Below, piece by piece: positions 49,044 through 63,646 of a stretch of 64,000 nt of DNA. Both the position numbers and the translations under genes were made by a program. The notes beneath the pieces were generated by a model. It searched no databases. It had not been told where the DNA came from and saw only the letters and a program-made list of their open reading frames with translations. Location of the stretch: positions 1-64,000 of the forward strand of contig CAZYCQ010000007.1 of assembly GCA_964645535.1 (NCBI GenBank). The letters are read 5' to 3'. Within the stretch, counting starts at the first letter, position 1, and each line of letters starts with the position of its first letter. This DNA is from an uncultured archaeon. GTDB lineage: Archaea; Asgardarchaeota; Heimdallarchaeia; Heimdallarchaeales; Kariarchaeaceae.

Positions 49044-49298
49044 CTTTCTTTTTTATATTTGGTCTGACGTCAGTTTCCAAATTTCCGTCACAAAAACAAT
49101 CTGTGTCTTTCGAACAAGCTTTTAACAAAATTATCATATTTTCAGTTTATCTAAACAAAAAATGAACATTTGCACATTATTTTATAATTTTCAAGAGGTA
49201 GGTGGGGTTCAAACCAATACCTTTTTTATAGTAAACTTCAATTTAGGAAATAATCACAGGACAATACTGTGTTGTGATACTAAGAAGAGGTGAAAATC

Positions 49299-50186
49299 AT
49301 GAAAAAAACCACTCTATTTCTAATGAGCGTATTGATCATGGGTGCATTTCTTGTACCTGTCGCTCTTACTGCCCATGAAGAAGGGGAAGAGCATCTTGAA
49401 CCGGGTTTGGTTGTAAATGCAACCAAGACTGACCTTTCAACCTTTACCATTGATGGTGAAGAAGACGATTGGGCAAATGTTCCAGAATATGTTATCTCAT
49501 TGAAACAACTGAACAATGAAGCCAACAGCAAGCATGGAGATTTCAAAATCGCCTACAATGATACTCATGTAGCTCTATTGGTCTTGATTGAAGACAACTA
49601 TAATGTCAATCTTTCCTCACACAAACTATCTCCAGCTATGGCTGTTGAATGGAAGATTGATGCAGATGCAGGACCTCACATGGGGACTGATGAGGGTGTT
49701 TCCACTGGAAAAGTCGACATTTGGCATTGGGAGCTTGAACATGAGGCAGGTTTCCTCCACACTCCCAATCCAGACAGTGGACACGGTGGCCATGGATTGG
49801 ATGATGAATGGGCTACATCCCCCACCGAAAGATATGATGATTCCAAGGAAAATTCCCTTTATGGTGCTTGGGGCTATGTACAGGATGAAAGTGAATTTGT
49901 TTTCGAATTCATTCGTCCCTTGACCACCAACGATGCAAATGATACTCAATTCAGTGATGATGCATCCTTCTTTATGAACATTGCATATTGGGATCCAGAT
50001 CAGACTGATGCAGGGTGGACTGGATCTGGTCATTACATTACCGTTACTGACTTCGAGTGGATCCAGATCAATTTCGGGAATCCCCCAACTGAAGATACTG
50101 GTGAATCTGGAAGCCCTGGATTTGTTTTCTGGGCAACTTTCATGACCCTTGCATCATTCGCTTTAATAAGAAAGAAAAAATTCTAA
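49299..50186 (+). CDS. Secreted DOMON-like (ethylbenzene dehydrogenase gamma/heme-binding type) protein with PGF-type anchor
   Basis: Signal peptide, TIDG..DW, HMG, VDIWHW, FEFIRPL, IAYWD..H; SPGF plus TM plus RKKK. Confidence 0.65.
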   Translation: MKKTTLFLMSVLIMGAFLVPVALTAHEEGEEHLEPGLVVNATKTDLSTFTIDGEEDDWANVPEYVISLKQLNNEANSKHGDFKIAYNDTHVALLVLIEDNYNVNLSSHKLSPAMAVEWKIDADAGPHMGTDEGVSTGKVDIWHWELEHEAGFLHTPNPDSGHGGHGLDDEWATSPTERYDDSKENSLYGAWGYVQDESEFVFEFIRPLTTNDANDTQFSDDASFFMNIAYWDPDQTDAGWTGSGHYITVTDFEWIQINFGNPPTEDTGESGSPGFVFWATFMTLASFALIRKKKF

Positions 50187-50995
50187 AGCTTTTGAACTTT
50201 AAAAACTAGCTCAAAATGTGATATTCTTGGTGCAAATTTCTTAACTTCAAAAATTTGGGTTTCTTCAATGGAAATGGATTGTTTTTTTAGGATTTCAATA
50301 TATTTTTCCACTCTTTGATTCACCTTTTCCCTTTTTTCCAATGGATGGAGGTGAATGGTGCCAGATGATTTTAATGCTTGGGTTGCTACCTTCAAATGTG
50401 TATGATCTACTTCATGATATCCCATGAGAACCCGGTCTGCCCAGTTCTCTAACTCTATTTCTCTGCAATCTATATTGAAGGCCTTCTCAGTTTTCTTGCC
50501 ATTGGCATAAAGAGTTTTCAACAAATAGGAATAGGTGATGGGATCTCGTTCAACAAGGATGTAGTCTATCTGCCTATGGACAATTGGTTGCATACTGAGG
50601 TTTCCCACAGCAGCAAACATGTCTAGAAGCTTTTCACCATCCTTGACCTCTTTCAAAATTCTTTGTCTTAAATTTCTGTTTCCTCCTGAAAATGTGATTT
50701 TACCTGCATCAAGAACGTACACAACTCCATTCTCCTTATGTTTGGTGATTGTTGTGGGATTGCCTGCAAGATGTCTTAATATTGGTCTCCTGTTTTCTCC
50801 AAGAGTTCCTGTCTGTTGGAATACCCCTGTACACCAAGAAAACTTTTCCATCACGATATTTCCGACAATTTCGGGAATTTCTTCTCTACTTCTCAAGATC
50901 ATGAGGGAGCCAATTCTCTTGAAACCTTTCGGAATCTGGATATCCCTGATCTCTGGCGGTAGTGCCTGACGAATCGTCTCCCTGAATGATGGCAC
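50183..50995 (-). CDS. Trm5/Taw2 (TYW2) family SAM-dependent tRNA-modification enzyme
   Basis: HKENGVVY.LD..ITFS.GN, LDMFAAVGNLS, ADRVLMGY, VKKFAP..H. Confidence 0.85.
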   Translation of the reverse strand: MPSFRETIRQALPPEIRDIQIPKGFKRIGSLMILRSREEIPEIVGNIVMEKFSWCTGVFQQTGTLGENRRPILRHLAGNPTTITKHKENGVVYVLDAGKITFSGGNRNLRQRILKEVKDGEKLLDMFAAVGNLSMQPIVHRQIDYILVERDPITYSYLLKTLYANGKKTEKAFNIDCREIELENWADRVLMGYHEVDHTHLKVATQALKSSGTIHLHPLEKREKVNQRVEKYIEILKKQSISIEETQIFEVKKFAPRISHFELVFKVQKL

Positions 50996-51083
50996 AATTT
51001 CATTTCAATTTGATGCAAAATTGATTGTTTCGATAGAACACGATAAAGAAGCATAATTAGACAATTAACCCGGCAGACGAACA

Positions 51084-51851
51084 TTGATTGTTGATAGTTC
51101 ACAAAACTGTTTAAGAATAGCTGAGGCAGCAGAGATTTGGACACCTTTGCGTCAGTTTATTGCAGATGGAAAAATAGACCTTGGAAACCCTTTGGCATTG
51201 ACTGAATACAACCGTGCCCTATTATTTGGATTGACAGGATGCCGGATTGAAATACCGAGAGAATATCTGATTCCTGCTGTTTGTCTCAGGTATTCTTATA
51301 TTCAATTTCTCAAGGATCAATTTCCCCATTCAAAAACACTTCTTGATGTCGGAACTGGTACTTCCGCTATTCTCGCATTGATTGCCCATCATCTTGGGTT
51401 CAGGGTTTTTGCCACGGAACTGGATCCTGTGGCATTGGAATGGGCTCGAAAAAACCTTGAATCAAATGGGGTGAGGACAATTGTATTCCCTAGTAGCGGT
51501 GGGATTCTCAAAGGTGTTGTTCCTCCTGATGCCCTTGACGAAATCGATTTGACTGTCACCTATCCACCATTTTATCCGATGGATACTCCTGGTCGGACAT
51601 CATTCAAGAAGAGGGGATTCAAAGGGTCTTCTTCCGAGTTATTTGGTGGTGTGACGGGAATCGAATTCACCCGTCAATACATATCTGAGGCTTGTGAATT
51701 CCAGATTCCTGTTCCTTCTGTTCTTCTGCACAAAAAGGAATTTGCAAGGCAAACAGAACGCTTCTATTCTTCCTCATACTCTGTGCATACAGTTCCTGTC
51801 AAGGCTGGAACCCGGTACCGGTTTATTGTTTACGGTGTCCTTAAGGCATAA
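51084..51851 (+). CDS. RlmF/METTL16-like RNA m6A methyltransferase
   Basis: YLIPAVCLRYSY, LDVGTGTSAI, ATELD, YPPFY (NPPF variant). Confidence 0.78.
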   Translation: MIVDSSQNCLRIAEAAEIWTPLRQFIADGKIDLGNPLALTEYNRALLFGLTGCRIEIPREYLIPAVCLRYSYIQFLKDQFPHSKTLLDVGTGTSAILALIAHHLGFRVFATELDPVALEWARKNLESNGVRTIVFPSSGGILKGVVPPDALDEIDLTVTYPPFYPMDTPGRTSFKKRGFKGSSSELFGGVTGIEFTRQYISEACEFQIPVPSVLLHKKEFARQTERFYSSSYSVHTVPVKAGTRYRFIVYGVLKA

Positions 51852-51943
51852 CCCGCTTTTATGGGATCTGACAGGTTGACAACATTCTACAAGCCTGTTT
51901 TCAATCGACTTCTTTTTAATTGAACTTGTCTTATATGAATTAG

Positions 51944-52216
51944 ATGTCTGAACGTAAAACTGCTGTGAAGAAAAAGAAGAAGTGGGGCAAGACCTATGAA
52001 TATGTCCCTGTTGTCCGATCCATGACCATCGATGAGGAGAAACGTGCCGATATGGAGAAGGAGTTGAAAAACCTGAAACCTACAACTCCTGAATCCTTTG
52101 CCAACAAATATGGCATCAAGGTGAGCTTGGCTCGTCTTATTTTGAACAAGTATGTTGAAGAAGGGAAGCTCAAAATCCTCGCGAACGGTAGCAAAACCAA
52201 TCTCTATTCCGCTTAA
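51944..52216 (+). CDS. rps25e: 30S ribosomal protein eS25
   Basis: KKKKKWGK N-terminus; TPESFANKYGIKVSLARLIL..EEGKL winged helix. Confidence 0.88.
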   Translation: MSERKTAVKKKKKWGKTYEYVPVVRSMTIDEEKRADMEKELKNLKPTTPESFANKYGIKVSLARLILNKYVEEGKLKILANGSKTNLYSA

Positions 52217-52851
52217 TTTTTCTTTTTCTTGGTCACTTGCCCTTTTGCCAGTTTTGCCATTTTTTTGAGATGTTCTTTCCAGTCGAAATTGCTGAAAGTA
52301 TCAAATCCATGGTTTTCTTTGTTTTTCTCCACTTTGTATTCATCGACAATTAGATACGAAATGTCTCCTAGGGCGTCCACAAGACCTATAACCAACTTTT
52401 TCTTGCTTGATGTCGCCAATTCGAGAAGATAGTCCAGATCCTTGATTTGAATGGCATCTCCTTCCCTAAGTGGACGAACATAATAACGGGCACTTGCATT
52501 GAATATTTTGACTCCCTTGTCATAAAGCCTGAAAAAAAATGTTGAACCCGAACCTTGGTTGATAACATGACCTCTGTTCCGCAAATCCTTGTACACCATA
52601 TACCTGTCGGAAAAATCCGGATCTGATTTTGCAAACATCGCATAAAGTTCAATCTCTGTTAAAAGTTTCTTGTTTTTGTCCATAGGTTTGATCTTTCCCC
52701 TTTCCGCTAGGTGGAGAACTTCATAAGGTGTCAGTAACAACCCTCCTCCTTTCTGTGGTGTTCCATAGGATCCTAAGTTGTACAAGGTGATTGCGTTTGC
52801 TCCTGCCGCGATGCCACATGTTTCTTCCACAAGGACTGGAATTTCCATCAA
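52213..52851 (-). CDS. endA: tRNA-intron endonuclease subunit, probably structural
   Basis: LTPYEVLHLAERG, YMVYKDLRNRG, FRLY, KKLVIGLVD..GDISY; the catalytic His expected after Y..G is absent. Confidence 0.8.
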   Translation of the reverse strand: MMEIPVLVEETCGIAAGANAITLYNLGSYGTPQKGGGLLLTPYEVLHLAERGKIKPMDKNKKLLTEIELYAMFAKSDPDFSDRYMVYKDLRNRGHVINQGSGSTFFFRLYDKGVKIFNASARYYVRPLREGDAIQIKDLDYLLELATSSKKKLVIGLVDALGDISYLIVDEYKVEKNKENHGFDTFSNFDWKEHLKKMAKLAKGQVTKKKKN

Positions 52852-52940
52852 ATAACAAGATTCTACACACTAAATAAATGGTGACGTAGGTTTGTTCACC
52901 CTTACTTGCTCTTTATATATTGATCTTCAGAAATTTAAGT

Positions 52941-53474
52941 ATGGTTTACAAAAAGGAGGTTCTTGCATTTCGTCAGGAAAAGGACAAATTTTTCAAGAGC
53001 TCACATCATAGCCCGTTAACAGAAAACCAGAAACGAAACTTCGTTGGACTTCAATACTTTCCAGTAGACGAGAAATACCGGCTCAAGGTCAAGCTTCAAC
53101 GTGATCCAAATCCTGAACGAGTGACAATGCAAACCTCAGATGGTCTATGGAGAGATTATGACCGGATTGGTTATTTTGATATCAAAATTGATGGTCAGAA
53201 GGCAAGAGTGTATGTTTATCAGTCCTCGGACAATCCTGATTACTATTTCATTCCCTTCAAGGATGCGACATCTGGTAAGGAAACCTATGGTGCCGGAAGA
53301 TACGTCGAAATTGAACCTTTGGGAAACGATGAATTCATACTTGATTTTAATATGGCATATAATCCCTATTGTGCCTATAATGGACGATTTTCCTGTCCCA
53401 TTCCCCCTAGAGAAAATTGGCTGGACATAAGGATCGAGGCTGGTGAAAAGAATTATCCTGAACCAGAATATTAG
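52941..53474 (+). CDS. DUF1684 family protein
   Basis: F.GL.YFP.D..YR, FIPFKDATSGKETYGAGRY, LDFNMAYNPYCAY..FSCPIPP.EN..IEAGEK. Confidence 0.92.
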   Translation: MVYKKEVLAFRQEKDKFFKSSHHSPLTENQKRNFVGLQYFPVDEKYRLKVKLQRDPNPERVTMQTSDGLWRDYDRIGYFDIKIDGQKARVYVYQSSDNPDYYFIPFKDATSGKETYGAGRYVEIEPLGNDEFILDFNMAYNPYCAYNGRFSCPIPPRENWLDIRIEAGEKNYPEPEY

Positions 53475-53539: not shown

Positions 53540-54283
53540 GTGACTGAAGGTTCTGTCGAAATACGCACTGAGCCAAAGCCTACAGAAGTCAGGACATTTC
53601 CCTTGTCATTTGTCAGAATTGATCGACTACTACCTCATGAGGAAATCATTGAACCTGAACTAGAAAAGCTTGTTCACGACCTAAGAATCAATGGTGTCTT
53701 GAGATATCCTGTTGTCGTCTCAAAGGATACTTACGTTATTTTGGACGGTCATCATAGATACAGTGCCCTCCAACGGTTGAATTTTGAATTCGCTCCCGCC
53801 ATCCTGCTTGACTACGAAGATGATGATCTTATAACTGTCGATACTTGGTATCCAATTGTTCACACCTCTCTTCATGATTTTCTGAATCATCTCCCTTCTC
53901 AAGACTATAAGATGGTCGATGAGCCATTCAATATTCTTCTACACAAGGTACAGCAACGTCATTACACTGCGGTTGTGGGAAATTCGGAACAGGTGGTTGC
54001 CTATACTGGTTCCCGTAGATCTTTGTTTAAGTTGGTTCGAAACCAGTATCTGACCACTACCCAATATGCAGACAATCCCAATGTAGCGTTAGACCATGCC
54101 AAAGAAGGAAAGATTGCTGTAATTTCTTGGGCTTACACAAAGAAGGAAATTGTAGAAAAGGCACAAGCACATGAGGTCTTTCTTCCAAAAACCACAAGAC
54201 ATACCATCAAATACCGATATCCCCCTATCAATCTCCACCTTGAAGATCTGAAGAACGTCAAGGAAGAAGAGATAAATTTCTAG
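53540..54283 (+). CDS. serK: ADP-dependent L-serine kinase SerK-like (ParB/Srx fold)
   Basis: PHEE, ILDGHHR, LDY..V.TWYP, TK.E..EVFLPKTTRH; similar in motif order and length to Thermococcus SerK as recalled. Confidence 0.75.
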   Translation: MTEGSVEIRTEPKPTEVRTFPLSFVRIDRLLPHEEIIEPELEKLVHDLRINGVLRYPVVVSKDTYVILDGHHRYSALQRLNFEFAPAILLDYEDDDLITVDTWYPIVHTSLHDFLNHLPSQDYKMVDEPFNILLHKVQQRHYTAVVGNSEQVVAYTGSRRSLFKLVRNQYLTTTQYADNPNVALDHAKEGKIAVISWAYTKKEIVEKAQAHEVFLPKTTRHTIKYRYPPINLHLEDLKNVKEEEINF

Positions 54284-55086
54284 ATTTGAATATAGGGTCT
54301 ATCCTTCATATCGTGTTCTTCCCTGAATGTGAAATACGCAGGAACTACCAATGCATGTATTGCCCTGTTCACATCAGGGTCATATTCCCACGTGTTGATC
54401 AATTCAATCAGGTATCGAATAATGAATTCAGGATATGCTTTTGGTTCCGGAAGATCACGACGGTTTGAATGTCCCAAAACATAGTTTAATGTTCTTCCAT
54501 CATCCCTATTTTCATAGGTTGCTCTGATCAGTTGGTGCAATCTAGGTGTTGCATACTCAAGCCTCTTCTCCTTTTCCATTGCTTCAATTCCAGCAAACCA
54601 TGCATGATAGGCAGTTCTTCTCAAGATCAGATCCCGTGTATTTGCTGATTCAAGGATGATATCGAGTAAATCGATATCTGTAGTTCCTTTCAGAGCTTGT
54701 AGAAGGGCATAAAGAAGGTCATCTGATGCCGAGGCCAATTGATCTCCAAACAGTTGTTCACGTTCTTCAAGGGGCAATTCTTGAAGAATCTCTATAATTG
54801 TGATCTTTTGTAGAAGTTTGGCTTGTCTATAGGTATTGACTAGCAGATCTTTTGCCTGCTTTTCAGGGTCGTTCTTGAACAATTTTCGGATGACAATTGT
54901 AGCATTCAATCTAAGGAGATTATCTTGGGCTTCCAAAAATGGAAGAAGGACTTCAATATCTTCTGGAAGGCCATATCTGCCTAGAACCAGTATAGCCTCT
55001 ACTTGGATGAATTTTTTGTTGCTATTTAATTTCCGTAAGGCAATAGTTCTCCAAATCTTTGCTTTGATGGTCTCAACAACACTCAT
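54280..55086 (-). CDS. HEAT-repeat protein (operon gene 4)
   Basis: EAILVLGRYG..LLPFLE.QDNLLRLNATIVIRKL and RDLILRRTA helical hairpins; ATGA overlap and AGGAGAGGT SD. Confidence 0.7.
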   Translation of the reverse strand: MSVVETIKAKIWRTIALRKLNSNKKFIQVEAILVLGRYGLPEDIEVLLPFLEAQDNLLRLNATIVIRKLFKNDPEKQAKDLLVNTYRQAKLLQKITIIEILQELPLEEREQLFGDQLASASDDLLYALLQALKGTTDIDLLDIILESANTRDLILRRTAYHAWFAGIEAMEKEKRLEYATPRLHQLIRATYENRDDGRTLNYVLGHSNRRDLPEPKAYPEFIIRYLIELINTWEYDPDVNRAIHALVVPAYFTFREEHDMKDRPYIQI

Positions 55087-56609
55087 TGCACTACCTCTCC
55101 TTGCTTGATCAAATATCTGATTGCCCGATGTTGAGGCTCTGTCAGATCCTTGAGTTCTGAATAATCCACTGTCTGCGCAAGCTTACCTTCGTCCTCACGG
55201 ACGTCGCTTATGTAGGCATCTTTTTTCCGAGTTACCTGCACCGCTCTTGAAACCAATGGAAGGTCATATGGTGACGTAGGGTACCCGGTTCCGGTCTTAA
55301 CACCTAAATATGCCGCTATGTGCATTCCTGCAAACTTCTTGAAAATGATGATATCGGGCAATCCAGGCAAGGGGGTGATAAAGCCGTTCTTTTCTGCGAG
55401 CAGGTGATTCCTCAAAATAATCATTTGCTCTTGACCAATGGCATCCTCATTTATTGAAAAAACTGCAACATCTTTGTCAGGAAGCTTAACCCTTCCATGT
55501 GCTTTGACTGCTGGCTTGTCCATCAGGAGTTGCTGGCGCGAGGAAATCTTATTTCTCTGTATCTTGCCGACAAGATTGGCAACCTTGTCGAATGATTGCG
55601 CTCTGATAGGCCAGAGATCTGCCCAATATCCATTTCTGAAACTGTGCCAAACCAATGCCTCTTCAGAAAGAACTTCTCGATAGTTCTCAATGCGCTGTTT
55701 CGTTTCCGATCTCTTCCAATGTTTAACCAATTCATAATCATTCTTGATTGACTTTGCAATGTCAAAAACACTCTTACCCTCATTTTCTTCAAGTTCTGTC
55801 AGCCACTGAAGGAAAATGAAGCCTACCTCTCCAAAAGGTTGTCCAAGGTTTCCTTTCAGGTCTGGTTTGATTTGAGTAACTATATCCTCATTTAAGGTCT
55901 CCAGATATTTTCTCAGGGCATAATGACCAAACCCATGCAAAGTTAGTTCCCATAAGGGCATTCTTTTCTCAAGCTTGGTTCTTTCTTGAACAATCTGTTT
56001 GATCTCTAAGAGGAAATTGTAGAAAACAGAAGTTTTCCTCATGGAGGCCGGGGGGATATAGAAATCTTCGATTCCATAAAGCGAAAGGACTCTGAGAGAT
56101 GCCACAAAATCTTGAAAATATTGCCACGCCCAAGGCGCACTTCTTTCCTTAACCAGTTCAAAGACATTGTTGGCGAACAACTCCTTGATGATGGCATCTT
56201 TTCTATAAATCTGTTCTAAAAGGCTAGGGAATGTGGATTCGGTTTTTTCTGCCAAAAGAGCCATTGAAAGAAGCTGAACCAACTTGGCCTTGATGGAATC
56301 CTTTGAAAGGGAAAACCTTGTAGCGGGCATATAGATTCTTGCTTTTCTTGAGGCAAGAAACAGATCTCGACCATTCGGTACAAGATTGTTGTGGTTTTTC
56401 AATTCTTGAAGCAATTCCAGCTCATTGGTTGAAATCAAGGCATGCGGTGTACCTGCTTGATTGGTTTGCAACAGTACCGAATCGTAGATATTGCTGTCCA
56501 GAAACAAGGCAACCATGTAATCCTCTGGTGCATCCCCAAAAAGATTTTTCACCTCATTTCTTGCTTCCTTATACGCCTCAAGGAATTTTGGATCCGTGAA
56601 ATCCATCAC
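55083..56609 (-). CDS. Hypothetical 508-aa protein with HxxGH helix (operon gene 3)
   Basis: LWELTLHGFGHYAL; start overlaps the vWA stop (GTGATG). Confidence 0.7.
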   Translation of the reverse strand: MMDFTDPKFLEAYKEARNEVKNLFGDAPEDYMVALFLDSNIYDSVLLQTNQAGTPHALISTNELELLQELKNHNNLVPNGRDLFLASRKARIYMPATRFSLSKDSIKAKLVQLLSMALLAEKTESTFPSLLEQIYRKDAIIKELFANNVFELVKERSAPWAWQYFQDFVASLRVLSLYGIEDFYIPPASMRKTSVFYNFLLEIKQIVQERTKLEKRMPLWELTLHGFGHYALRKYLETLNEDIVTQIKPDLKGNLGQPFGEVGFIFLQWLTELEENEGKSVFDIAKSIKNDYELVKHWKRSETKQRIENYREVLSEEALVWHSFRNGYWADLWPIRAQSFDKVANLVGKIQRNKISSRQQLLMDKPAVKAHGRVKLPDKDVAVFSINEDAIGQEQMIILRNHLLAEKNGFITPLPGLPDIIIFKKFAGMHIAAYLGVKTGTGYPTSPYDLPLVSRAVQVTRKKDAYISDVREDEGKLAQTVDYSELKDLTEPQHRAIRYLIKQGEVVQ

Positions 56610-58009
56610 TCTGCAATCGCCTCCTGTATGATTCTTGCACCAAGCTGGTCGATTTTAGTCGGATCGATCAATATTGGCTTGGTGATGCCACCCAACATCA
56701 CCTTGGTGTCCCTGTAAAGGTCACTGTTCTTGAATTTCTCAGGTGCCATCAGGAAATAGGAGATATCCCAATTTCGATCCATGCTTTTCTTGAGGAAATT
56801 AAAATATTGGTTCAGTTGAATCATGCATTCTTTTGTCTCTGTTTTTGTTGAGCTACTATTGTGTTCAAAATACTCAATGAGGAACTTATCGGGTCTTCCT
56901 GGAATCTTCCCCTTAAATGGAACGTTTGGTCGACCATCAGTTAGAACAATGATTTGAACATCATAGTCGTTTTCCTTGTGATTGTTTGTAACATGATTGA
57001 CTACTGCATTGACTGCATGAACCAATCTGGTTTTTCCTTTGGCTTCGGCTTCAAACAGGAATCTTTCCAGCCTTGCGTTGTCGTCAATTACATAGGGTAC
57101 TTCTGTCACAGGTACCAAATGCATTTTGAAGGTGTCGAATTCCCGTCGTTTCCTGCGGTTGGTCAGATTGAAATAATAATAAAGGCCAAGGGACGTGAGG
57201 AGGGCTCCGTCAAGTCTGGTCAATCCCCCACTGAAGACTGTTCTTGCCATCGATTGGCTGACATCGACAATAAAATAAATCAGGGAAAGCCGATCCTTAT
57301 CCACTACGCGGATATCTTCTGTTTCAATTGATGGAGGTGGGATATTGGCACTTCTGAGAATTGCTGCCTTGTATGTATGCCTTTTCTTGATCTTTCCTCG
57401 TGGTCGGGCATCGATGTTATCAACTGGTCGCAATGAAGCCTGTCTGATGATCATGTTTCCCAATGTTTTTCCAAGAACATCCAGAACATCACTCTGTTGG
57501 ACTCTACGTTTCCGACCAAATTGATCCCTGATCTCAATATCTGTCAGCTCATTTAGTCTGCTAAGCATAGACTGTGCAACAGAAATGGATCTTCCATATT
57601 CTTGTCGCATCAGTTCAAGATGTCTTTCAATGAACTTCATGATGTCTTCCGGCGTCAGCAAAAGATCTTTGTTCACTAATTCCAAAGCTTCCGGAAGGGT
57701 ATAATTCATCATGAAGTTAAGAACTTTGAGTTGATCAATAAGTTGTTCCTCAGTTTTTGCATCCAAATTGGTTGTCAGAAGCATATCACGAATCAACTCA
57801 ACTGACTTATTCGCTTCATTGGCGAGCCTGATGATTGTCCCCTCCCTTGATGACCTACCAAGATGGGGATTTCTCCATTTTCTAAGAATTTCCGCTGCAT
57901 CTTGAAATTGCAAGATGAACTCTGTGGATCCATAATTGACCAATGGATCCTGATAATGAGCCTCTGTCAACCATTTGATTCGATGTGGCATTGTCGTAGC
58001 CCCCATCAC
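56606..58009 (-). CDS. vWA-domain protein (operon gene 2)
   Basis: MIDAS FIVDVSQSM, GKT, IIVLTDGRPN; long helical N-terminal region. Confidence 0.88.
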   Translation of the reverse strand: MMGATTMPHRIKWLTEAHYQDPLVNYGSTEFILQFQDAAEILRKWRNPHLGRSSREGTIIRLANEANKSVELIRDMLLTTNLDAKTEEQLIDQLKVLNFMMNYTLPEALELVNKDLLLTPEDIMKFIERHLELMRQEYGRSISVAQSMLSRLNELTDIEIRDQFGRKRRVQQSDVLDVLGKTLGNMIIRQASLRPVDNIDARPRGKIKKRHTYKAAILRSANIPPPSIETEDIRVVDKDRLSLIYFIVDVSQSMARTVFSGGLTRLDGALLTSLGLYYYFNLTNRRKRREFDTFKMHLVPVTEVPYVIDDNARLERFLFEAEAKGKTRLVHAVNAVVNHVTNNHKENDYDVQIIVLTDGRPNVPFKGKIPGRPDKFLIEYFEHNSSSTKTETKECMIQLNQYFNFLKKSMDRNWDISYFLMAPEKFKNSDLYRDTKVMLGGITKPILIDPTKIDQLGARIIQEAIAE

Positions 58010-59550
58010 AGGTATGCTACATCAAGAAGTGATTCATAGCTCGGCTTAACCATGCCATATATCTCATCTTGAGCATCCTGGGGCAATTTCTCGATACCCT
58101 CATAGGAAAGTACCAAACTCTTGAGCTGTTCCTCACTCATGGCAGTCAATTTATCAAGCTCTTCGGTAACTTCCTCCACGCTGATTGCACTTCCACCTGC
58201 CCTTAAATGCTCTCTTAGGTTCAACTTGAGGGATTGGAGGGCATTATTGACCAATGTGGGTGAAATATCATACAGCTCCAAGGTAGCCTTGACATTGTCA
58301 AGGGTGATGATGTTGCTTTCAGTTCTCTTATCCTCATTTGCCCGTATGACTACTTCACCAATTGCGTTATTGAGGGTACGGAGGTCTATGTAGGGTGAAC
58401 GTTGGGGATTGTGCACCTCATCAAGTCCTGCATAGAATTCCGCCCGTGCAAACTTATTCTCGGATCTTCCGGAAAGATTCTTGAGTGCGTTCGGAATAGA
58501 TTCACTTGCGAGATGGGCTACAAATTCAACGGCTAAACGGGATACAAAATCATTCTTCCCTTCTCCCATCAATTCAAACATGCGGATAAGGGCTGGATTG
58601 GCAACAATGTTAGCTCTTTGGATGATCAAATGCTCCTCAAACATGTCCTTGACGATCTTAATACGATCCTCGACATTTCTTGCTGGCCAAAGCACCTCCG
58701 GAATACGATTGATGATCGGCTGTGATTCCTCTCCAAAAACGGTTAGTGGGGCGTTCGAAGTGAATATGATTGCTCCATCGACATAGACTGGTTGCCCCGA
58801 AAGGTTATATTTGATTCCTTCAGGATCTTCAAGGAACCCCATCAACGATTCCAGTAAGCTGAGATGAAGTCTTTGAATTTCGTTAACAACCAAGAATCCC
58901 TGAGAGAGAGTTCCGACCTTATGTGCTTTGGGATCAAATGTGGTATTGCTGGAATCCCCAAAAAGCTGTTCAAGGTTCTCAACACCCGCCAACAACATAT
59001 ATAGGCTATCGGGATCATTCCGTGGATCGATCTGTGCTGTCCTGACTATTGTCTTTTCGATAGGAACTTTCTTCAACAATTCCGGAACTTTTTTGCCAAG
59101 TTTGACCATCTGATCAGTATTGTCAATGTCTACCCTTTCTCCTCCTTCCGAAAGTACTTCTTCGATAGTCGATCGGGCAAAGGGGGAAAGACTTTGAAGG
59201 ACATCGATTGCTCCATAGATGTTCTTGTCATAATTGTTGATGACCTTGATAAGATAGCCTGCATCTTCGAGGAATGGACTTCCTTTGATATGGTATTTCT
59301 TCGCATTGATTTCATGGGTCAAGTGGTTAAGCAAAACTCTTGCAAAAAGGGTCTTTGCCTCCCCAGTTGGACCCGTCAAAAGAACCTTTCCTCCAACTGC
59401 CAGTTTGTCCATAACCAATTTCTTGATGTTGTCATTGCCCCTTACTGTTTTGTCATCAAGCACTTTCTGCCTGAATTTCTCGTCCGTCATGATGGAACGA
59501 ACTGAGCATCCTTGATACCCCGCATCTATTAGGTTCTGAACTGTTTGCAT
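58006..59550 (-). CDS. AAA+ ATPase, chelatase/MoxR-related (Rv0958-like) (operon gene 1)
   Basis: N-terminal TV..L..AGY...SV, Walker A GPTGEAKT, Walker B FLVVNE, sensor-1 FTSN, Arg finger IINR. Confidence 0.82.
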   Translation of the reverse strand: MQTVQNLIDAGYQGCSVRSIMTDEKFRQKVLDDKTVRGNDNIKKLVMDKLAVGGKVLLTGPTGEAKTLFARVLLNHLTHEINAKKYHIKGSPFLEDAGYLIKVINNYDKNIYGAIDVLQSLSPFARSTIEEVLSEGGERVDIDNTDQMVKLGKKVPELLKKVPIEKTIVRTAQIDPRNDPDSLYMLLAGVENLEQLFGDSSNTTFDPKAHKVGTLSQGFLVVNEIQRLHLSLLESLMGFLEDPEGIKYNLSGQPVYVDGAIIFTSNAPLTVFGEESQPIINRIPEVLWPARNVEDRIKIVKDMFEEHLIIQRANIVANPALIRMFELMGEGKNDFVSRLAVEFVAHLASESIPNALKNLSGRSENKFARAEFYAGLDEVHNPQRSPYIDLRTLNNAIGEVVIRANEDKRTESNIITLDNVKATLELYDISPTLVNNALQSLKLNLREHLRAGGSAISVEEVTEELDKLTAMSEEQLKSLVLSYEGIEKLPQDAQDEIYGMVKPSYESLLDVAYL

Positions 59551-59621
59551 ACAAGTCAGAATTTGACGTTCTTCATATAAAGAAAACGGTGTTGACGTAT
59601 GTTAAACTCGCAAGCAATTTC

Positions 59622-60206
59622 CTATTGCAGGTATTGGCTCGCCAATGTGCTTAAATCTGTATCTGGCAAGTTCGCAAAGTGTTGCAGGGCTTCCCTGATT
59701 TTGGGATCGAATGCCTCGTTTTTCCCTTGCATTGCTCCAAGGCATTTGATCACGGCAATTTTTACAGGGTTAATCTGTGATGCTGCTAAATTCATCAGAA
59801 TTTCAACAGTTTCTCCGATCCTTTCTGGTGCAAACGCTCCTTGTTTTTCCAGCCAAGCTACTGGATCCTGTCCAAACAGTGCCTCTTGAATGAATGAAGC
59901 CGACCAATTTGACCCTCCGCTCGATCCTAACTCCACAGTGGCAGGGGTTGCTTCCTGTTCCTGTGCTACACCCCACTCCATATTAAGCCTTCTTTCAATT
60001 TCCTCTGGGTCATTGATGGATCTTACTACGTTTGGTGTTTCTAATGACAGTTGATCATGACATTTTCTGCATAAAAATCGAACAACCTTTTGACCCACCT
60101 CATTGTCGCGTACCTGAAGCCAATTTACACCATCCTGTCCGCAGATGTCGCAGTATTGGAATTCCATCTCGTTTTCCAAAACCCGACCCAAAAACTCATC
60201 CGACAT
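59622..60206 (-). CDS. Zinc-finger plus HEAT-like protein
   Basis: CDIC...CRKC near the N-terminus; VKIAVIKCLGAM helical hairpin near the C-terminus. Confidence 0.6.
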   Translation of the reverse strand: MSDEFLGRVLENEMEFQYCDICGQDGVNWLQVRDNEVGQKVVRFLCRKCHDQLSLETPNVVRSINDPEEIERRLNMEWGVAQEQEATPATVELGSSGGSNWSASFIQEALFGQDPVAWLEKQGAFAPERIGETVEILMNLAASQINPVKIAVIKCLGAMQGKNEAFDPKIREALQHFANLPDTDLSTLASQYLQ

Positions 60207-60336
60207 ACCCTCATTTGGTCATCCTCTCTCAAAAACTTTCTTTTGCTCAAATGAAGTTGGAAATACCGTAGTATCTCTTCAGTATCACAACTAATTTAAT
60301 AAAACATGATCCGTTCATTTCTTACGGTGAACACAT

Positions 60337-60504
60337 ATGAGGCTGGTAACTGTACATCTCCCTAAAGAATTCCTCTATGGACTTGATGAACTGGTTCGAC
60401 TACAGAAATATCCGACAAGATCGGAGGCAATCCGGGTCGCCATCCGCGACTTATTGAAGGATGAACTCTGGAATTCGAATCTTGTCAAGTCCTCATCCGT
60501 CTAG
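60337..60504 (+). CDS. Ribbon-helix-helix regulator (CopG/CdrS-like; not in ORF track)
   Basis: MRLVTVHLPKEFLYGLDELVRLQKYPTRSEAIRVAIRDLLKDELW.., 55 aa, GGTGA SD upstream. Confidence 0.88.
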   Translation: MRLVTVHLPKEFLYGLDELVRLQKYPTRSEAIRVAIRDLLKDELWNSNLVKSSSV

Positions 60505-60723: not shown

Positions 60724-60856
60724 ACCTTTTCATACGAACACAGTCATTTAATGATGTTGGTCTCTTCTCCCACTTTTCCCGGAAATTCCTATTAATTTGA
60801 CACATTGGGCGATTAAACCTTTTATGTCTTGGCAAGACATTTTAGATGGTGTTTTC

Positions 60857-62470
60857 ATGAGGTTTTTCAGAAGAACACGCAATCTCAAACGAAGGATTTT
60901 CAAAAAGAAAATAGGGTATGTTCATCTTGTTCTTTCAGGAAAGATCCCTGTCTATGCAAAAAAGAAATCATTTATCGAAGGCAAAGTTTTCCCCTCTCCA
61001 CCCCTTACACTCTTGGGTCTTTATGAAACCACTCTTCGACTTGTTTCAAATCCGCGTGTAAAGGGATTGATCATTCATTTAAGCAATCTGGAGCTTGAAC
61101 GCTATGGCGATTATGAATTCCTCAGGAATCTCATGAAAATTTGGACTGAATATGGAAAAAAGGTATATGTCTATGCTTCAAACTATGATACCCTTTCCTA
61201 TTACCTTGCAAGTGCAGCTACCAAAGTTTATCTGACTCAAGGAGGGATTCTCGGCACGATTGGATTGAATCTTGAAATTCCGTTCTTGAAGGAATTTCTG
61301 GAAAAATGGGGTTTTCAAGCTCAGGTAGTTCAGATCAGCCCCTACAAATCTGCCGCAAACAATCTTTTCTATGAAGAAATGCCAAAAGAGCAGGAGAAAA
61401 TGATCAACTGGATGCTTGATTCCCTCTATGAAGGGGTTGTCCTCGGAATTTCCCAAGGTAGGAGCCGCGAAATTAATGACGTAACTTCACTTATCGACAA
61501 TTCTCCCTTGACTGACAGGGAAGCGTTAGATCAAGGATGGATTGATGGAATTCTCTCCTCCTCCGACATTCTTTCAGAAATCAAAAAGGAAGATTCTTCC
61601 GCAGTAATCACTGAATATGCAGATGCCTTGGGTAGACTTCCCATCCCCGGCAAGAAAAAGGCTCAAATTGCATTGATCCCTGCTGTAGGGGGTATTGTTG
61701 ATGGTCAAGGAAGCGATCGAGGTTTTCCCAATCCTTTCGAGGATCGATATCAAGTTGCAGATATATCTACCATCAATGCCATAAGAGCAGTCCGGAAAAA
61801 TAAAAAGAAATACAAGGCTGCTCTTCTTTTTGTGGATTCCCCAGGCGGAAGTGCAACGGCATCAGAAAACATCCTGAATGAATTGAGGCTGTTGAGCAAA
61901 GAGATGCCTCTTTATGCCTATTTCCACAGTGTTGCTGGATCGGGCGGGTACTATATCTCCATGGCCTCGAAAAAAATCTATTCTGAACGTACGACTATCA
62001 CGGCATCCATTGGGGTGCTCACTGTCAAACTGATCCGCAAGGGACTTATTGAACAACAAAAAATTAAGCCCTATGTGTTCAATAGAGGAGCACATGCTGA
62101 CCTTCAATCTCCCGAAAGACCTTGGAATGAAGAAGAGTTGAATATTGTCAAAAAACAGATTGAGAACATCTATGACATATTTCTGGATCACGTCAGCACC
62201 AACAGAGGAATCGAACGGGACAAACTTCATGAAAATGCTCAAGGAAAGGTTTTCATTGCACCCCAAGCACTTGAGAAAAACCTTCTTGACAAAATCATTC
62301 CCCTGAAAGACGCATTGGAAGAGATCGCTTCTGAAGTTGGTTCCAAAACAGCCGATTTCCATGTTTTTCCTCCAATCGGTAAGCCCATCGCCCCCTTGGA
62401 AATGCCCGATCCGAAACAGATCAACGGAAAAATCATGTTGCAGATGTTTCCTCCCTTGAAATTCAGATAA
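60857..62470 (+). CDS. sppA: Signal peptide peptidase SppA (S49, two-domain)
   Basis: YYLASAA, YKSA, VDSPGGSA.ASE, AGSGGYYIS, TASIGV, AQGKVF; start uncertain (60797/60824/60857). Confidence 0.9.
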   Translation: MRFFRRTRNLKRRIFKKKIGYVHLVLSGKIPVYAKKKSFIEGKVFPSPPLTLLGLYETTLRLVSNPRVKGLIIHLSNLELERYGDYEFLRNLMKIWTEYGKKVYVYASNYDTLSYYLASAATKVYLTQGGILGTIGLNLEIPFLKEFLEKWGFQAQVVQISPYKSAANNLFYEEMPKEQEKMINWMLDSLYEGVVLGISQGRSREINDVTSLIDNSPLTDREALDQGWIDGILSSSDILSEIKKEDSSAVITEYADALGRLPIPGKKKAQIALIPAVGGIVDGQGSDRGFPNPFEDRYQVADISTINAIRAVRKNKKKYKAALLFVDSPGGSATASENILNELRLLSKEMPLYAYFHSVAGSGGYYISMASKKIYSERTTITASIGVLTVKLIRKGLIEQQKIKPYVFNRGAHADLQSPERPWNEEELNIVKKQIENIYDIFLDHVSTNRGIERDKLHENAQGKVFIAPQALEKNLLDKIIPLKDALEEIASEVGSKTADFHVFPPIGKPIAPLEMPDPKQINGKIMLQMFPPLKFR

Positions 62471-62536
62471 ATACCCCCTCGTCCCTTATGAAACATTTTT
62501 TTTTGTGGAAAATCAAGAAACATTGAAGCCTACCCC

Positions 62537-63646
62537 ATGAGCACGACACAAGAGAAAATTCAGGAAATAGAGGAAGAACTGAGGAGAACCAAGGTCAACA
62601 AGGCCACTGAAAGTCATATTGGCCGACTCAAGGCAAAACTAGCCAAGCTCAAGAGGGAACAGCAGGAGCAGATCCTCGCCAAAAGTGGCAGGGGTGGCTC
62701 AGGATATGATATCAAAAAGAGTGGGGATAGCAGTGTCGCTCTCATTGGTCTTCCTTCCGTCGGCAAATCCACCCTATTAAGTCGACTGACCAACAAGGAA
62801 TCAAAAACTGGTCATTATGCCTTCACCACATTGGAGGCAATTCCCGGAATCATGGAATACAATGGTACACAGGTTCAGATCATTGATCTGCCCGGTATCA
62901 TTTCCGGTGCGTCAAAAGGGAAAGGACGAGGCAAGCAGGTCCTGGGGGTGGCTCGGAGCGCAGACCTGATTCTCATTGTACTGGATGTATTCGATGCGGA
63001 AAACCATATGCGTCTGATCATGGAAGAACTCTATCACTTCGGTATCAGGCTTGATCAGGAAAAACCGGATATCGAGATCGAGAAAACCAGAAGTGGTGGT
63101 ATTGCCATTGCCTCTATCAAGAAGTTAACCAAGATTGATGAAAAAACAATAAAGGCAATCATGAACGAATATAAAATCATCAACGCAAATGTCACCATCA
63201 GAACAGACATCGATGCTGACCAACTGATTGATGTTCTTGAGGGAAACCGTGTCTACATCCCCTCTGTGGTTGTTGTCAACAAAGTGGATCTAGCCACTCC
63301 TGAAATGATTGAGGATATCAAGAACAAGCTAAAGGTGGATCTCTTCATCTCCGCAGAGACCAATTACAACATGGAAGAACTCAAGAAACTCCTTTTTGAG
63401 AAGCTTGATTTGATTCGTATCTATCTGAAACCATATGGCCAACCTCCTGATTACGAGGAACCTCTCATCATGAAGGCAGGGGCTACAGTTGAGGATGTTT
63501 GTGATCGCCTCCACCGCAACCTGAAGAAAGAATTCAAATTCGCTCGTGTTTGGGGCAAATCCGCAAAGCATGCTGGTCAGAGAGTCATGCTCAACCATGT
63601 TCTCGAGGATGAGGATGTTCTCACAATCATCAAATCCCGGAATTGA
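62537..63646 (+). CDS. DRG/Rbg1-family GTPase with TGS domain
   Basis: NKATESHIG.LKAKLAKL, GLPSVGKST, YAFTT, DLPG, NKVD, VWGKSAKH.GQRV. Confidence 0.95.
   Translation: MSTTQEKIQEIEEELRRTKVNKATESHIGRLKAKLAKLKREQQEQILAKSGRGGSGYDIKKSGDSSVALIGLPSVGKSTLLSRLTNKESKTGHYAFTTLEAIPGIMEYNGTQVQIIDLPGIISGASKGKGRGKQVLGVARSADLILIVLDVFDAENHMRLIMEELYHFGIRLDQEKPDIEIEKTRSGGIAIASIKKLTKIDEKTIKAIMNEYKIINANVTIRTDIDADQLIDVLEGNRVYIPSVVVVNKVDLATPEMIEDIKNKLKVDLFISAETNYNMEELKKLLFEKLDLIRIYLKPYGQPPDYEEPLIMKAGATVEDVCDRLHRNLKKEFKFARVWGKSAKHAGQRVMLNHVLEDEDVLTIIKSRN

Follow-up and report, generated by a model that had tools for sequence, protein, structure and literature searches.

An AAA+/vWA operon specific to Heimdall-group Asgard archaea: a candidate remodelling complex with pseudo-enzyme partners

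What is made by a compact set of genes that an archaeal order has kept together almost without exception, and whose products match no characterised complex? The question is raised by a stretch of 64,000 nucleotides (contig CAZYCQ010000007.1 of assembly GCA_964645535.1, positions 1 to 64,000, hereafter the window) from an uncultured archaeon of the Kariarchaeaceae, in the Asgard class Heimdallarchaeia. Four genes on its minus strand encode an AAA+ ATPase, a protein with a von Willebrand factor A (vWA) domain, a protein of 508 residues and a HEAT-repeat protein. We find that they form a vertically inherited operon, specific to Heimdall-group Asgard archaea, to which a fifth, Arf-like gene belongs; with a probability of about 0.6 the products are the subunits of an undescribed remodelling complex, in which an AAA+ ATPase and a vWA protein with a complete metal ion-dependent adhesion site (MIDAS) would work with pseudo-enzyme scaffolds in one soluble cytoplasmic machine. 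The operon is laid out as follows, in the direction of transcription:

59573-59582, minus strand: TATA-like box CTTTATATGA, read from the 71-nt spacer preceding the ATPase gene
58006-59550, minus strand: AAA+ ATPase, 514 residues, first operon gene in the window's genome (open frame and translation)
56606-58009, minus strand: vWA protein, 467 residues from a GTG or 461 from the likely ATG at 57991 (VWA_2 and MIDAS)
55083-56609, minus strand: two-domain protein of 508 residues, without family assignment (open frame and AlphaFold2 model)
54280-55086, minus strand: HEAT-repeat protein, 268 residues, last operon gene (HEAT_2 and family profile)

The arrangement is far beyond chance, because all four genes are colinear in 15/15 genome loci and in all 26 metagenome loci that are long enough to show them (the metagenome scan yielded mainstream members of the ATPase family only). 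A preliminary description of the window, made from its letters, had proposed that the third and fourth genes belong with the AAA/vWA pair; in the gene-neighbourhood survey they accompany it at every locus. In a sample of 301 genomes of the phylum, the ATPase gene is found in 52 and the gene of the 508-residue protein in 51, in the same families and as a single copy each. A census of one Asgard class, family by family, gave 11/11 (f1), 30/31 (f2), 1/1 (f3), 3/3 (f4) and 10/12 (f6) genomes with the operon, against 0/22 (f5) and 0/2 (f7). It is therefore present in 45/46 genomes of the window's order and in 10/12 of a sister family, and in 0/22 of another family, f5, which includes genomes that are 96-99% complete; outside this class the operon is absent from the 301-genome sample. 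Relatives of the ATPase number 107 among 5.8 billion proteins, all from Heimdall-group Asgard archaea (labelled Kariarchaeaceae, Heimdallarchaeaceae or Heimdallarchaeota, the most distant being Hodarchaeota), and all but one of them are annotated as hypothetical; the divergent AAA clades, labelled Hodarchaeota or Promethearchaeota, are 37-43% identical. The 508-residue protein is represented by 17 sequences only among 1.84 billion proteins. Identity to the window decreases with taxonomic distance for all four proteins, and in the window's own genus the operon is intact at 76-95% identity. The operon is thus inherited vertically and specific to Heimdall-group Asgard archaea.

On the window the four genes are tightly packed. 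The coordinates of the four minus-strand genes given in the preliminary description were confirmed and their translations are open; the junctions, which it had described as stop/start overlaps, have exactly the sequences reported. By direct reading, GTGATG at 58009-58004 contains the ATPase stop TGA (58008-58006), GTGATG at 56609-56604 contains the vWA stop TGA (56608-56606), and in ATGA at 55086-55083 the start of the HEAT gene overlaps the stop of the preceding gene. One of the three is probably not an overlap: the orthologues of the vWA protein begin with MPHRI in 9/13 cases, so its start is more probably the ATG at 57991, 14 nt past the ATPase stop, and the ATPase/vWA junction is then a short gap. 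The junctions accordingly measure -4, -4/-1 and +14 nt. The centre of the TATA-like box CTTTATATGA lies 28 nt before the ATPase start codon. In archaea the TATA box lies some 26-27 nt ahead of the transcription start. The position of this box fits that spacing and suggests that transcription begins at a promoter of the operon's own and that the first gene is leaderless. The G+C content of the genes is 0.40-0.44, compared with 0.421 for the window, and none of the operon proteins has a membrane-spanning segment.

The first gene encodes an unusual AAA+ protein. Both nucleotide-binding motifs recognised in the preliminary description are seen in the translation: GPTGEAKT (residues 60-67) as Walker A and VVNE (221-224) as Walker B, where Asn replaces the usual Asp. 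This Asn-Glu is found in 100/100 homologues, where the hhhhDE consensus has Asp-Glu, and Walker A is GPTGE[AG]K[TS] throughout. The family's invariant motifs comprise GPTGE[AG]K[TS], VVNEIQRL followed by LLESLMGFLE, FTSN and INRIP; a sensor-1-like N266 and the arginines R282 and R391 are also invariant. The stretch before Walker A, LLE..M, the sensor 1 FTSN and ..NRI.. resemble what we take to be the DEINRA-type consensus of MoxR/ChlI proteins, and the invariant residues would be in keeping with a MoxR/ChlI-like AAA+ protein. Walker A and Walker B stand about 150 residues apart. This stretch contains three Cys in most homologues, replaced by Ser, Ser and Ala in the window's genus, and a His/Cys3 cluster is kept in most of the family. 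Of the best 50 rows for the lid (residues 284-436), nearly all are alignments to AAA+ lids, the alpha-subdomain of Lon being among the best matches; the lid is followed by a helical tail (437-514). This tail ends in V-A-Y-L (58006-58020), the penultimate residue being Tyr in 68, His in 19 and Phe in 2 of 100 homologues; speculatively, it recalls the HbYX/GQYL tails that dock ATPases on the 20S proteasome.

For the ATPase, Pfam gave AAA_5 (PF07728) at 19.2 bits (cut-off 22), Mg_chelatase (PF01078) at 12.5 (20.3) and Sigma54_activat at 18.0 (20.2), with no match to AAA_3 (PF07726), and the ATPase profile matched no chain among the Protein Data Bank (PDB) sequences beyond the P-loop. In the ESM Atlas, the neighbours of the ATPase model are clusters carrying Mg_chelatase, AAA_5 or Sigma54_activat, and a PrkA AAA cluster is its second-nearest structural neighbour (template modelling score, TM, 0.65). 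Foldseek searches with the AlphaFold2 models of the ATPase and of the 508-residue protein returned no match at E<=0.001. The window's genome itself (G000) carries twelve or more MoxR-like AAA_5 paralogues that pass the Pfam cut-off, two of which, of 512-554 codons, lie on contigs C77 and C102; aligned with hhalign to the MoxR paralogues of its own genome, the ATPase gives P-loop or short local matches only.

The second protein combines a family-specific, conserved N-terminal domain (residues ~1-240, including WRNPHLGRSSREG) with a vWA domain (~244-365) and a conserved C-terminal part. The Pfam scan and a profile search of the PDB sequences found no match to the first 240 residues. The vWA domain (PF13519/PF00092) matches VWA_2 at 24.2 bits (cut-off 27) over residues 245-359 and profile positions 2-106 of 107, and the same region matches the cobaltochelatase-subunit family TIGR02442 (1.6e-5) and the BchD/ChlD vWA model (1.3e-3); the family profile found nothing significant among the PDB sequences. 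The MIDAS, already described as intact, is complete: D249-x-S251-x-S253, T327 and D358 are all present, and the five residues are invariant in 14 orthologues.

The 508-residue protein, for which the AlphaFold2 model is of good quality (mean predicted local distance difference test, pLDDT, 82.9; predicted TM score 0.84), is made of two domains. Judged from this model, the N-terminal domain (~1-355) is probably zincin/gluzincin-like, without the catalytic residues, and the C-terminal alpha/beta domain (~367-508) is probably DHHA1-like; both assignments are given as probable because the structural match values are middling. The HxxGH motif singled out in the preliminary description does exist, as HGFGH at residues 224-228, but it is not conserved, F227 alone being invariant among orthologues, and HExxH occurs nowhere in the family. 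The helix that follows the beta-sheet carries HAxAH, with no catalytic Glu, in families f2, f4 and f6, and QLLSM, without His, in the window. The protein, first proposed as a client or effector, is best described as a catalytically dead, zincin-like scaffold. It differs from the gluzincins (M1 aminopeptidases/LTA4H, M32 carboxypeptidases and DUF885-like proteins) in lacking HExxH and in having the additional DHHA1-like domain, and hhalign detected no sequence similarity to Escherichia coli PepN. Scans of Pfam, NCBIfam and PADLOC returned no family for this protein or for the ATPase core, its family profile found nothing significant among the PDB sequences, and the ESM Atlas stores a poor model of it (pLDDT 0.38), from which no usable match came. 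A protein of 2614 residues with seven weak matches to residues 379-438 was rejected as spurious, being a Gram-positive surface repeat protein.

The fourth protein was correctly recognised as a HEAT protein. In its own sequence HEAT_2 stays just below the cut-off (27.0 bits against 27.7); the family profile reveals tandem repeats of the PBS-lyase type, matching alphaRep and PBS-type HEAT proteins at 7.8e-37 over up to seven stretches and adaptin beta subunits at ~1e-6. The family is present in 15/15 loci.

A fifth component came from clustering the flanking open reading frames: in most loci a gene of 170-205 codons lies directly upstream of the ATPase gene, on the same strand. It adjoins the ATPase gene in 46/56 genomes (29/30 in f2, 10/10 in f6 and 7/12 in f1) and in 24/25 metagenome loci, and the genomes with full-length orthologues are those that carry the ATPase. 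Its product belongs to the Arf family: PF00025 is above cut-off in 9/11 members (best 1.7e-9), and Arl1, Arl3 and Arf chains are matched at 1e-10 to 1e-7 (Arl1 at 2.1e-10). Relative to Arf and Arl GTPases, the protein preserves the fold well in its C-terminal half, whereas the alignment has a shortened P-loop, no GKT in most members and neither DxxGQ nor NKxD. With the P-loop shortened and the other two motifs missing, the protein most likely cannot bind GTP and is unlikely to hydrolyse it. This Arf-like pseudo-GTPase is a real fifth component, and the window has a derived arrangement of an ancestral five-gene operon, since the gene is adjacent in most loci and lies on another contig in the window's genome:

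Contig C9, 25870-26388 (L060:1486-2016), minus strand: intact Arf-like gene of G000, 176 codons, unlinked to the operon

This copy retains a VGKTT P-loop remnant that most orthologues lack. In the sister species G045 the Arf-like gene is 1.9 kb upstream of the operon, on the other strand. In most related loci of the family the Arf-like gene is preceded, at a distance of 1-2 kb, by a ParB_N gene, which in G045 immediately precedes the ATPase gene; the breakpoint of a rearrangement of the locus therefore falls precisely between the genes of the Arf-like protein and the ATPase. The proposal of a four- or five-part system thus holds in that a fifth part exists, and fails as to its identity, which is neither of the two upstream neighbours described further on.

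What would such a set of proteins do? In NorQ-NorD, CbbQ-CbbO, RavA-ViaA, CobS-CobT and ChlI-ChlD, as here, the gene that comes immediately after the AAA+ gene encodes a protein whose C-terminal vWA domain has a complete MIDAS. By analogy with these MoxR/ChlI-type couples, the four genes would encode subunits of one soluble cytoplasmic machine, the fifth, Arf-like subunit being encoded elsewhere in the window's genome. The ATPase would form a ring and be the sole enzyme of the set; the vWA protein would dock on the ring through its family-specific N-terminal domain, and its MIDAS metal would grip an acidic residue, either on a target or on a partner subunit, so that ATP binding and hydrolysis could pull on, or reshape, a protein target. 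The invariant Asn-Glu of Walker B suggests, on the same analogy, a slow and switch-like hydrolysis. The remaining three proteins have lost their active-site or nucleotide-binding residues, and the ATPase is the only likely enzyme, as the MIDAS metal is the only likely binding chemistry; the pseudo-zincin/DHHA1-like, HEAT and pseudo-Arf proteins would act in scaffolding and target recognition, giving the machine its shape and specificity. The differences from the known couples are considerable. MoxR proteins have ~300 residues, whereas this ATPase has 514, with the ~150-residue Walker A-B spacing that usually carries the His/Cys3 cluster; its Walker B is Asn-Glu, unlike that of the known MoxR/ChlI-vWA couples; and the pseudo-zincin, HEAT and pseudo-Arf proteins have no counterpart in any known AAA+/vWA couple.

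Several observations weigh against a remodelling complex of this kind. The Asn in Walker B might instead mean that the ATPase is poor or inactive. The ATPase, with all Pfam AAA models, and the vWA domain stay below the Pfam gathering scores, and in the AlphaFold2 model of the ATPase the core (residues 179-281) has a pLDDT below 50, so that the AAA+ clade and its inserts, such as the helix-2 insert and the pre-sensor-1 beta-hairpin, are not readable. Finally, no gene that might encode a target is conserved beside the operon.

The nearest competing explanation is that the core formed by the ATPase, the vWA protein and the 508-residue protein is a very diverged homologue of PrkA/YeaG (SpdA), YeaH/YhbH and SpoVR/YcgB, a module of bacteria and haloarchaea, and serves proteostasis under stress or starvation; PrkA acts as an ATP-dependent protease (PMC9512850) and SpdA/YeaG takes part in starvation-induced proteolysis (PMC13684143). 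Profiles built from ~55 proteobacterial prkA-yeaH-spoVR operons were compared with ours by hhalign, with reversed profiles as controls. These operons have the same gene order, tight packing and similar sizes (prkA 640 residues, yeaH 423, spoVR ~500), and the PrkA cluster among the Atlas neighbours and the Lon-like lid point in the same direction. PrkA and SpoVR are the top forward matches of the ATPase and of the 508-residue family, respectively; for the latter three motif blocks are colinear, and the invariant E202 and EGFA-x-Y fall on the invariant REI...NEG(W/F)A-x-(F/Y) of SpoVR with identical spacing, the common motif being an invariant Glu, 22 residues and EG(F/W)A-x-(Y/F). The scores themselves are within noise, because the reversed-profile controls score alike: 30.3 for the ATPase against PrkA and 27.3 against reversed PrkA, 32.3 (7% probability) for the 508-residue family against SpoVR and 33.0 against its own reversed profile. 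Moreover, the vWA protein scores 23.0 with YeaH, lower than with the non-cognate PrkA (27.1). AAA_PrkA (PF08298), the PrkA C-terminal domain (PF06798), DUF444 (PF04285) and SpoVR (PF04293/PF24755) gave no match at E<=1 in the operon, and no canonical family of the module has a Pfam match across the window's whole genome; the ATPase is ~130 residues shorter than PrkA (514 against 640) and lacks its C-terminal domain, its profile misses the solved PrkA chain 9xip, and hhalign with E. coli YeaG and YeaH yielded P-loop or short local matches only. The HEAT and pseudo-Arf genes are two conserved genes more than the bacterial module has. The likeness in gene order, in sizes and in one Atlas neighbour is real, and at the level of sequence comparison it does not demonstrate homology; we regard common descent with the PrkA module as doubtful, though worth keeping in view. 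The canonical module is also missing from almost all of the Asgard genomes sampled: canonical SpoVR is above cut-off in 1/301, a metagenome-assembled genome labelled 'Heimdallarchaeota' (G286). Its SpoVR genes (L036, L040, L061) lie on ~4-kb contigs, the genes of which share about 50% identity with proteobacterial ones; to gammaproteobacterial SpoVR the identity is 50-55%. One of the copies, of 762 codons, has a split match as though it bore an insertion. These genes are likely contamination or a recent transfer.

A chaperone for the insertion of metal cofactors, like ChlI/ChlD-ChlH, CobS/CobT-CobN, NorQ/NorD or CoxD/CoxE, with the 508-residue protein as the client that receives the metal, is suggested by the chelatase regions nearest to the vWA domain, by Mg_chelatase among the Atlas neighbours of the ATPase, by the HAxAH...E kept by the 508-residue family in f2, f4 and f6 and by the His/Cys3 cluster of most ATPases. 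This role is improbable, because neither candidate metal site survives in the window's genus (QLLSM in the 508-residue protein, Ser/Ser/Ala in the ATPase), where the operon is nevertheless intact; nor is any metalloenzyme or tetrapyrrole gene conserved nearby. In vWA-MoxR ternary systems, AAA+/vWA pairs are combined with third components that vary, and these systems, together with the many MoxR-like paralogues of the genome, speak for a conflict or defence system whose pseudo-enzymes would be sensors or effectors. The pattern is rather that of a housekeeping locus: vertical, single-copy, near-universal in the order, with identity that tracks taxonomy and with translation and tRNA genes around it, native G+C and no signs of mobile elements. 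PADLOC returned only a P-loop-level match to TRIP13 (8e-4) and a weak WGR match, no toxic effector domain is present, and neither a patchy, transfer-like phylogeny nor linkage to defence islands was seen in other genomes; given this pattern and the missing PADLOC assignment, we consider a defence role highly improbable. It is also quite improbable, and proposed by analogy, that the five proteins are a Heimdall-specific, ATP-driven machine selecting substrates for proteolysis, with a make-up parallel to that of the eukaryotic 19S regulatory particle: the AAA ring would have the vWA protein in the place of Rpn10, the dead metalloprotease in that of Rpn8 and the alpha-solenoid in that of Rpn1/2, the Arf-fold pseudo-GTPase would grip the HEAT solenoid, and the x-Tyr-x tail of the ATPase would dock on the 20S proteasome. 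The support for this is limited to the list of parts and the ATPase tail. The preferred interpretation remains an AAA+/vWA remodelling complex that carries pseudo-enzyme scaffolds.

On the window, the operon is bordered by these genes:

59622-60206, minus strand: zinc-ribbon/HEAT protein, 194 residues, outside the conserved system (CDIC and CRKC; weak HEAT-like C-terminus)
60337-60504, plus strand: ribbon-helix-helix (RHH) protein, 55 residues, outside the conserved system (RHH_1)
53540-54283, plus strand: ParB_N-domain protein, convergent with the operon end

The first two had been put forward as possible parts of the system, the RHH protein as its divergent regulator. In the 14 further genome loci and the 26 metagenome loci neither gene adjoins the operon. 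The zinc-ribbon/HEAT gene stands upstream of the ATPase gene only in G000, G026 and G160, all of the window's genus, and the RHH gene accompanies it there in G000 and G026 only. Elsewhere the zinc-ribbon/HEAT gene is 31 kb off the operon in G045 and on other contigs in G166, G178, G232 and G244. Within the family the two genes are an adjacent pair of their own, found 31 kb away in G045 and on other contigs in G232, G244 and G247, and co-directional in these four genomes where in the window they are divergent. They are thus a separate pair, and synteny rules out the RHH protein as a regulator of the operon. In the 194-residue protein, CDIC and CRKC are accompanied by HEAT_2 at an E-value of 0.12 only. 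The 55-residue protein matches RHH_1 at 36.7 bits (cut-off 20.5) and, in NCBIfam, CdrS at 38.8 (cut-off 100; 6.8e-10) and aCcr1 at 29.3 (cut-off 60; 5.7e-7); it resembles these archaeal cell-division regulators below their cut-offs, and the two genes may be a cell-division regulatory pair. The wider surroundings (49290-53474 and 60797-63646) are of housekeeping character, with genes for TYW2-like and RNA methyltransferases, ribosomal protein S25e, tRNA-intron endonuclease, DUF1684, the S49 peptidase SppA and a TGS-domain GTPase of the DRG type. Horizontal transfer and a mobile element were considered for the locus, and are ruled out by its composition, its neighbours and the taxonomy-tracking identity.

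That the AAA+/vWA operon is uncharacterised, as first described, is borne out by the searches of Pfam, NCBIfam, PADLOC and the PDB sequences, which returned no match to a characterised complex, and by the literature searched on AAA+, vWA, MoxR, Arf and pseudoGTPase proteins of Asgard archaea and Heimdallarchaeia, in which no description of it was found; the archaeal ArvA operon is unrelated (PMC10927574). The operon is near-universal and single-copy in one order and a sister family. It combines an unusual AAA+ protein, with its invariant Asn-Glu Walker B and a long Cys-bearing insert, with a MIDAS adaptor and with three further proteins that we see as derived, without active sites, from enzymes or switches: a zincin, an Arf GTPase and a HEAT solenoid. 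If the core proved to be a cousin of PrkA/SpdA, the Asgard archaea would join the organisms with starvation proteolysis. If the Arf-fold protein binds the HEAT protein, the two would be a simple prokaryotic form of the Arf-solenoid pairing of eukaryotic coats and adaptors. The window itself, where the Arf-like gene is unlinked and the Cys triad and the His pair are lost while the four genes stay intact, is a natural variant for asking which features of the system are dispensable.

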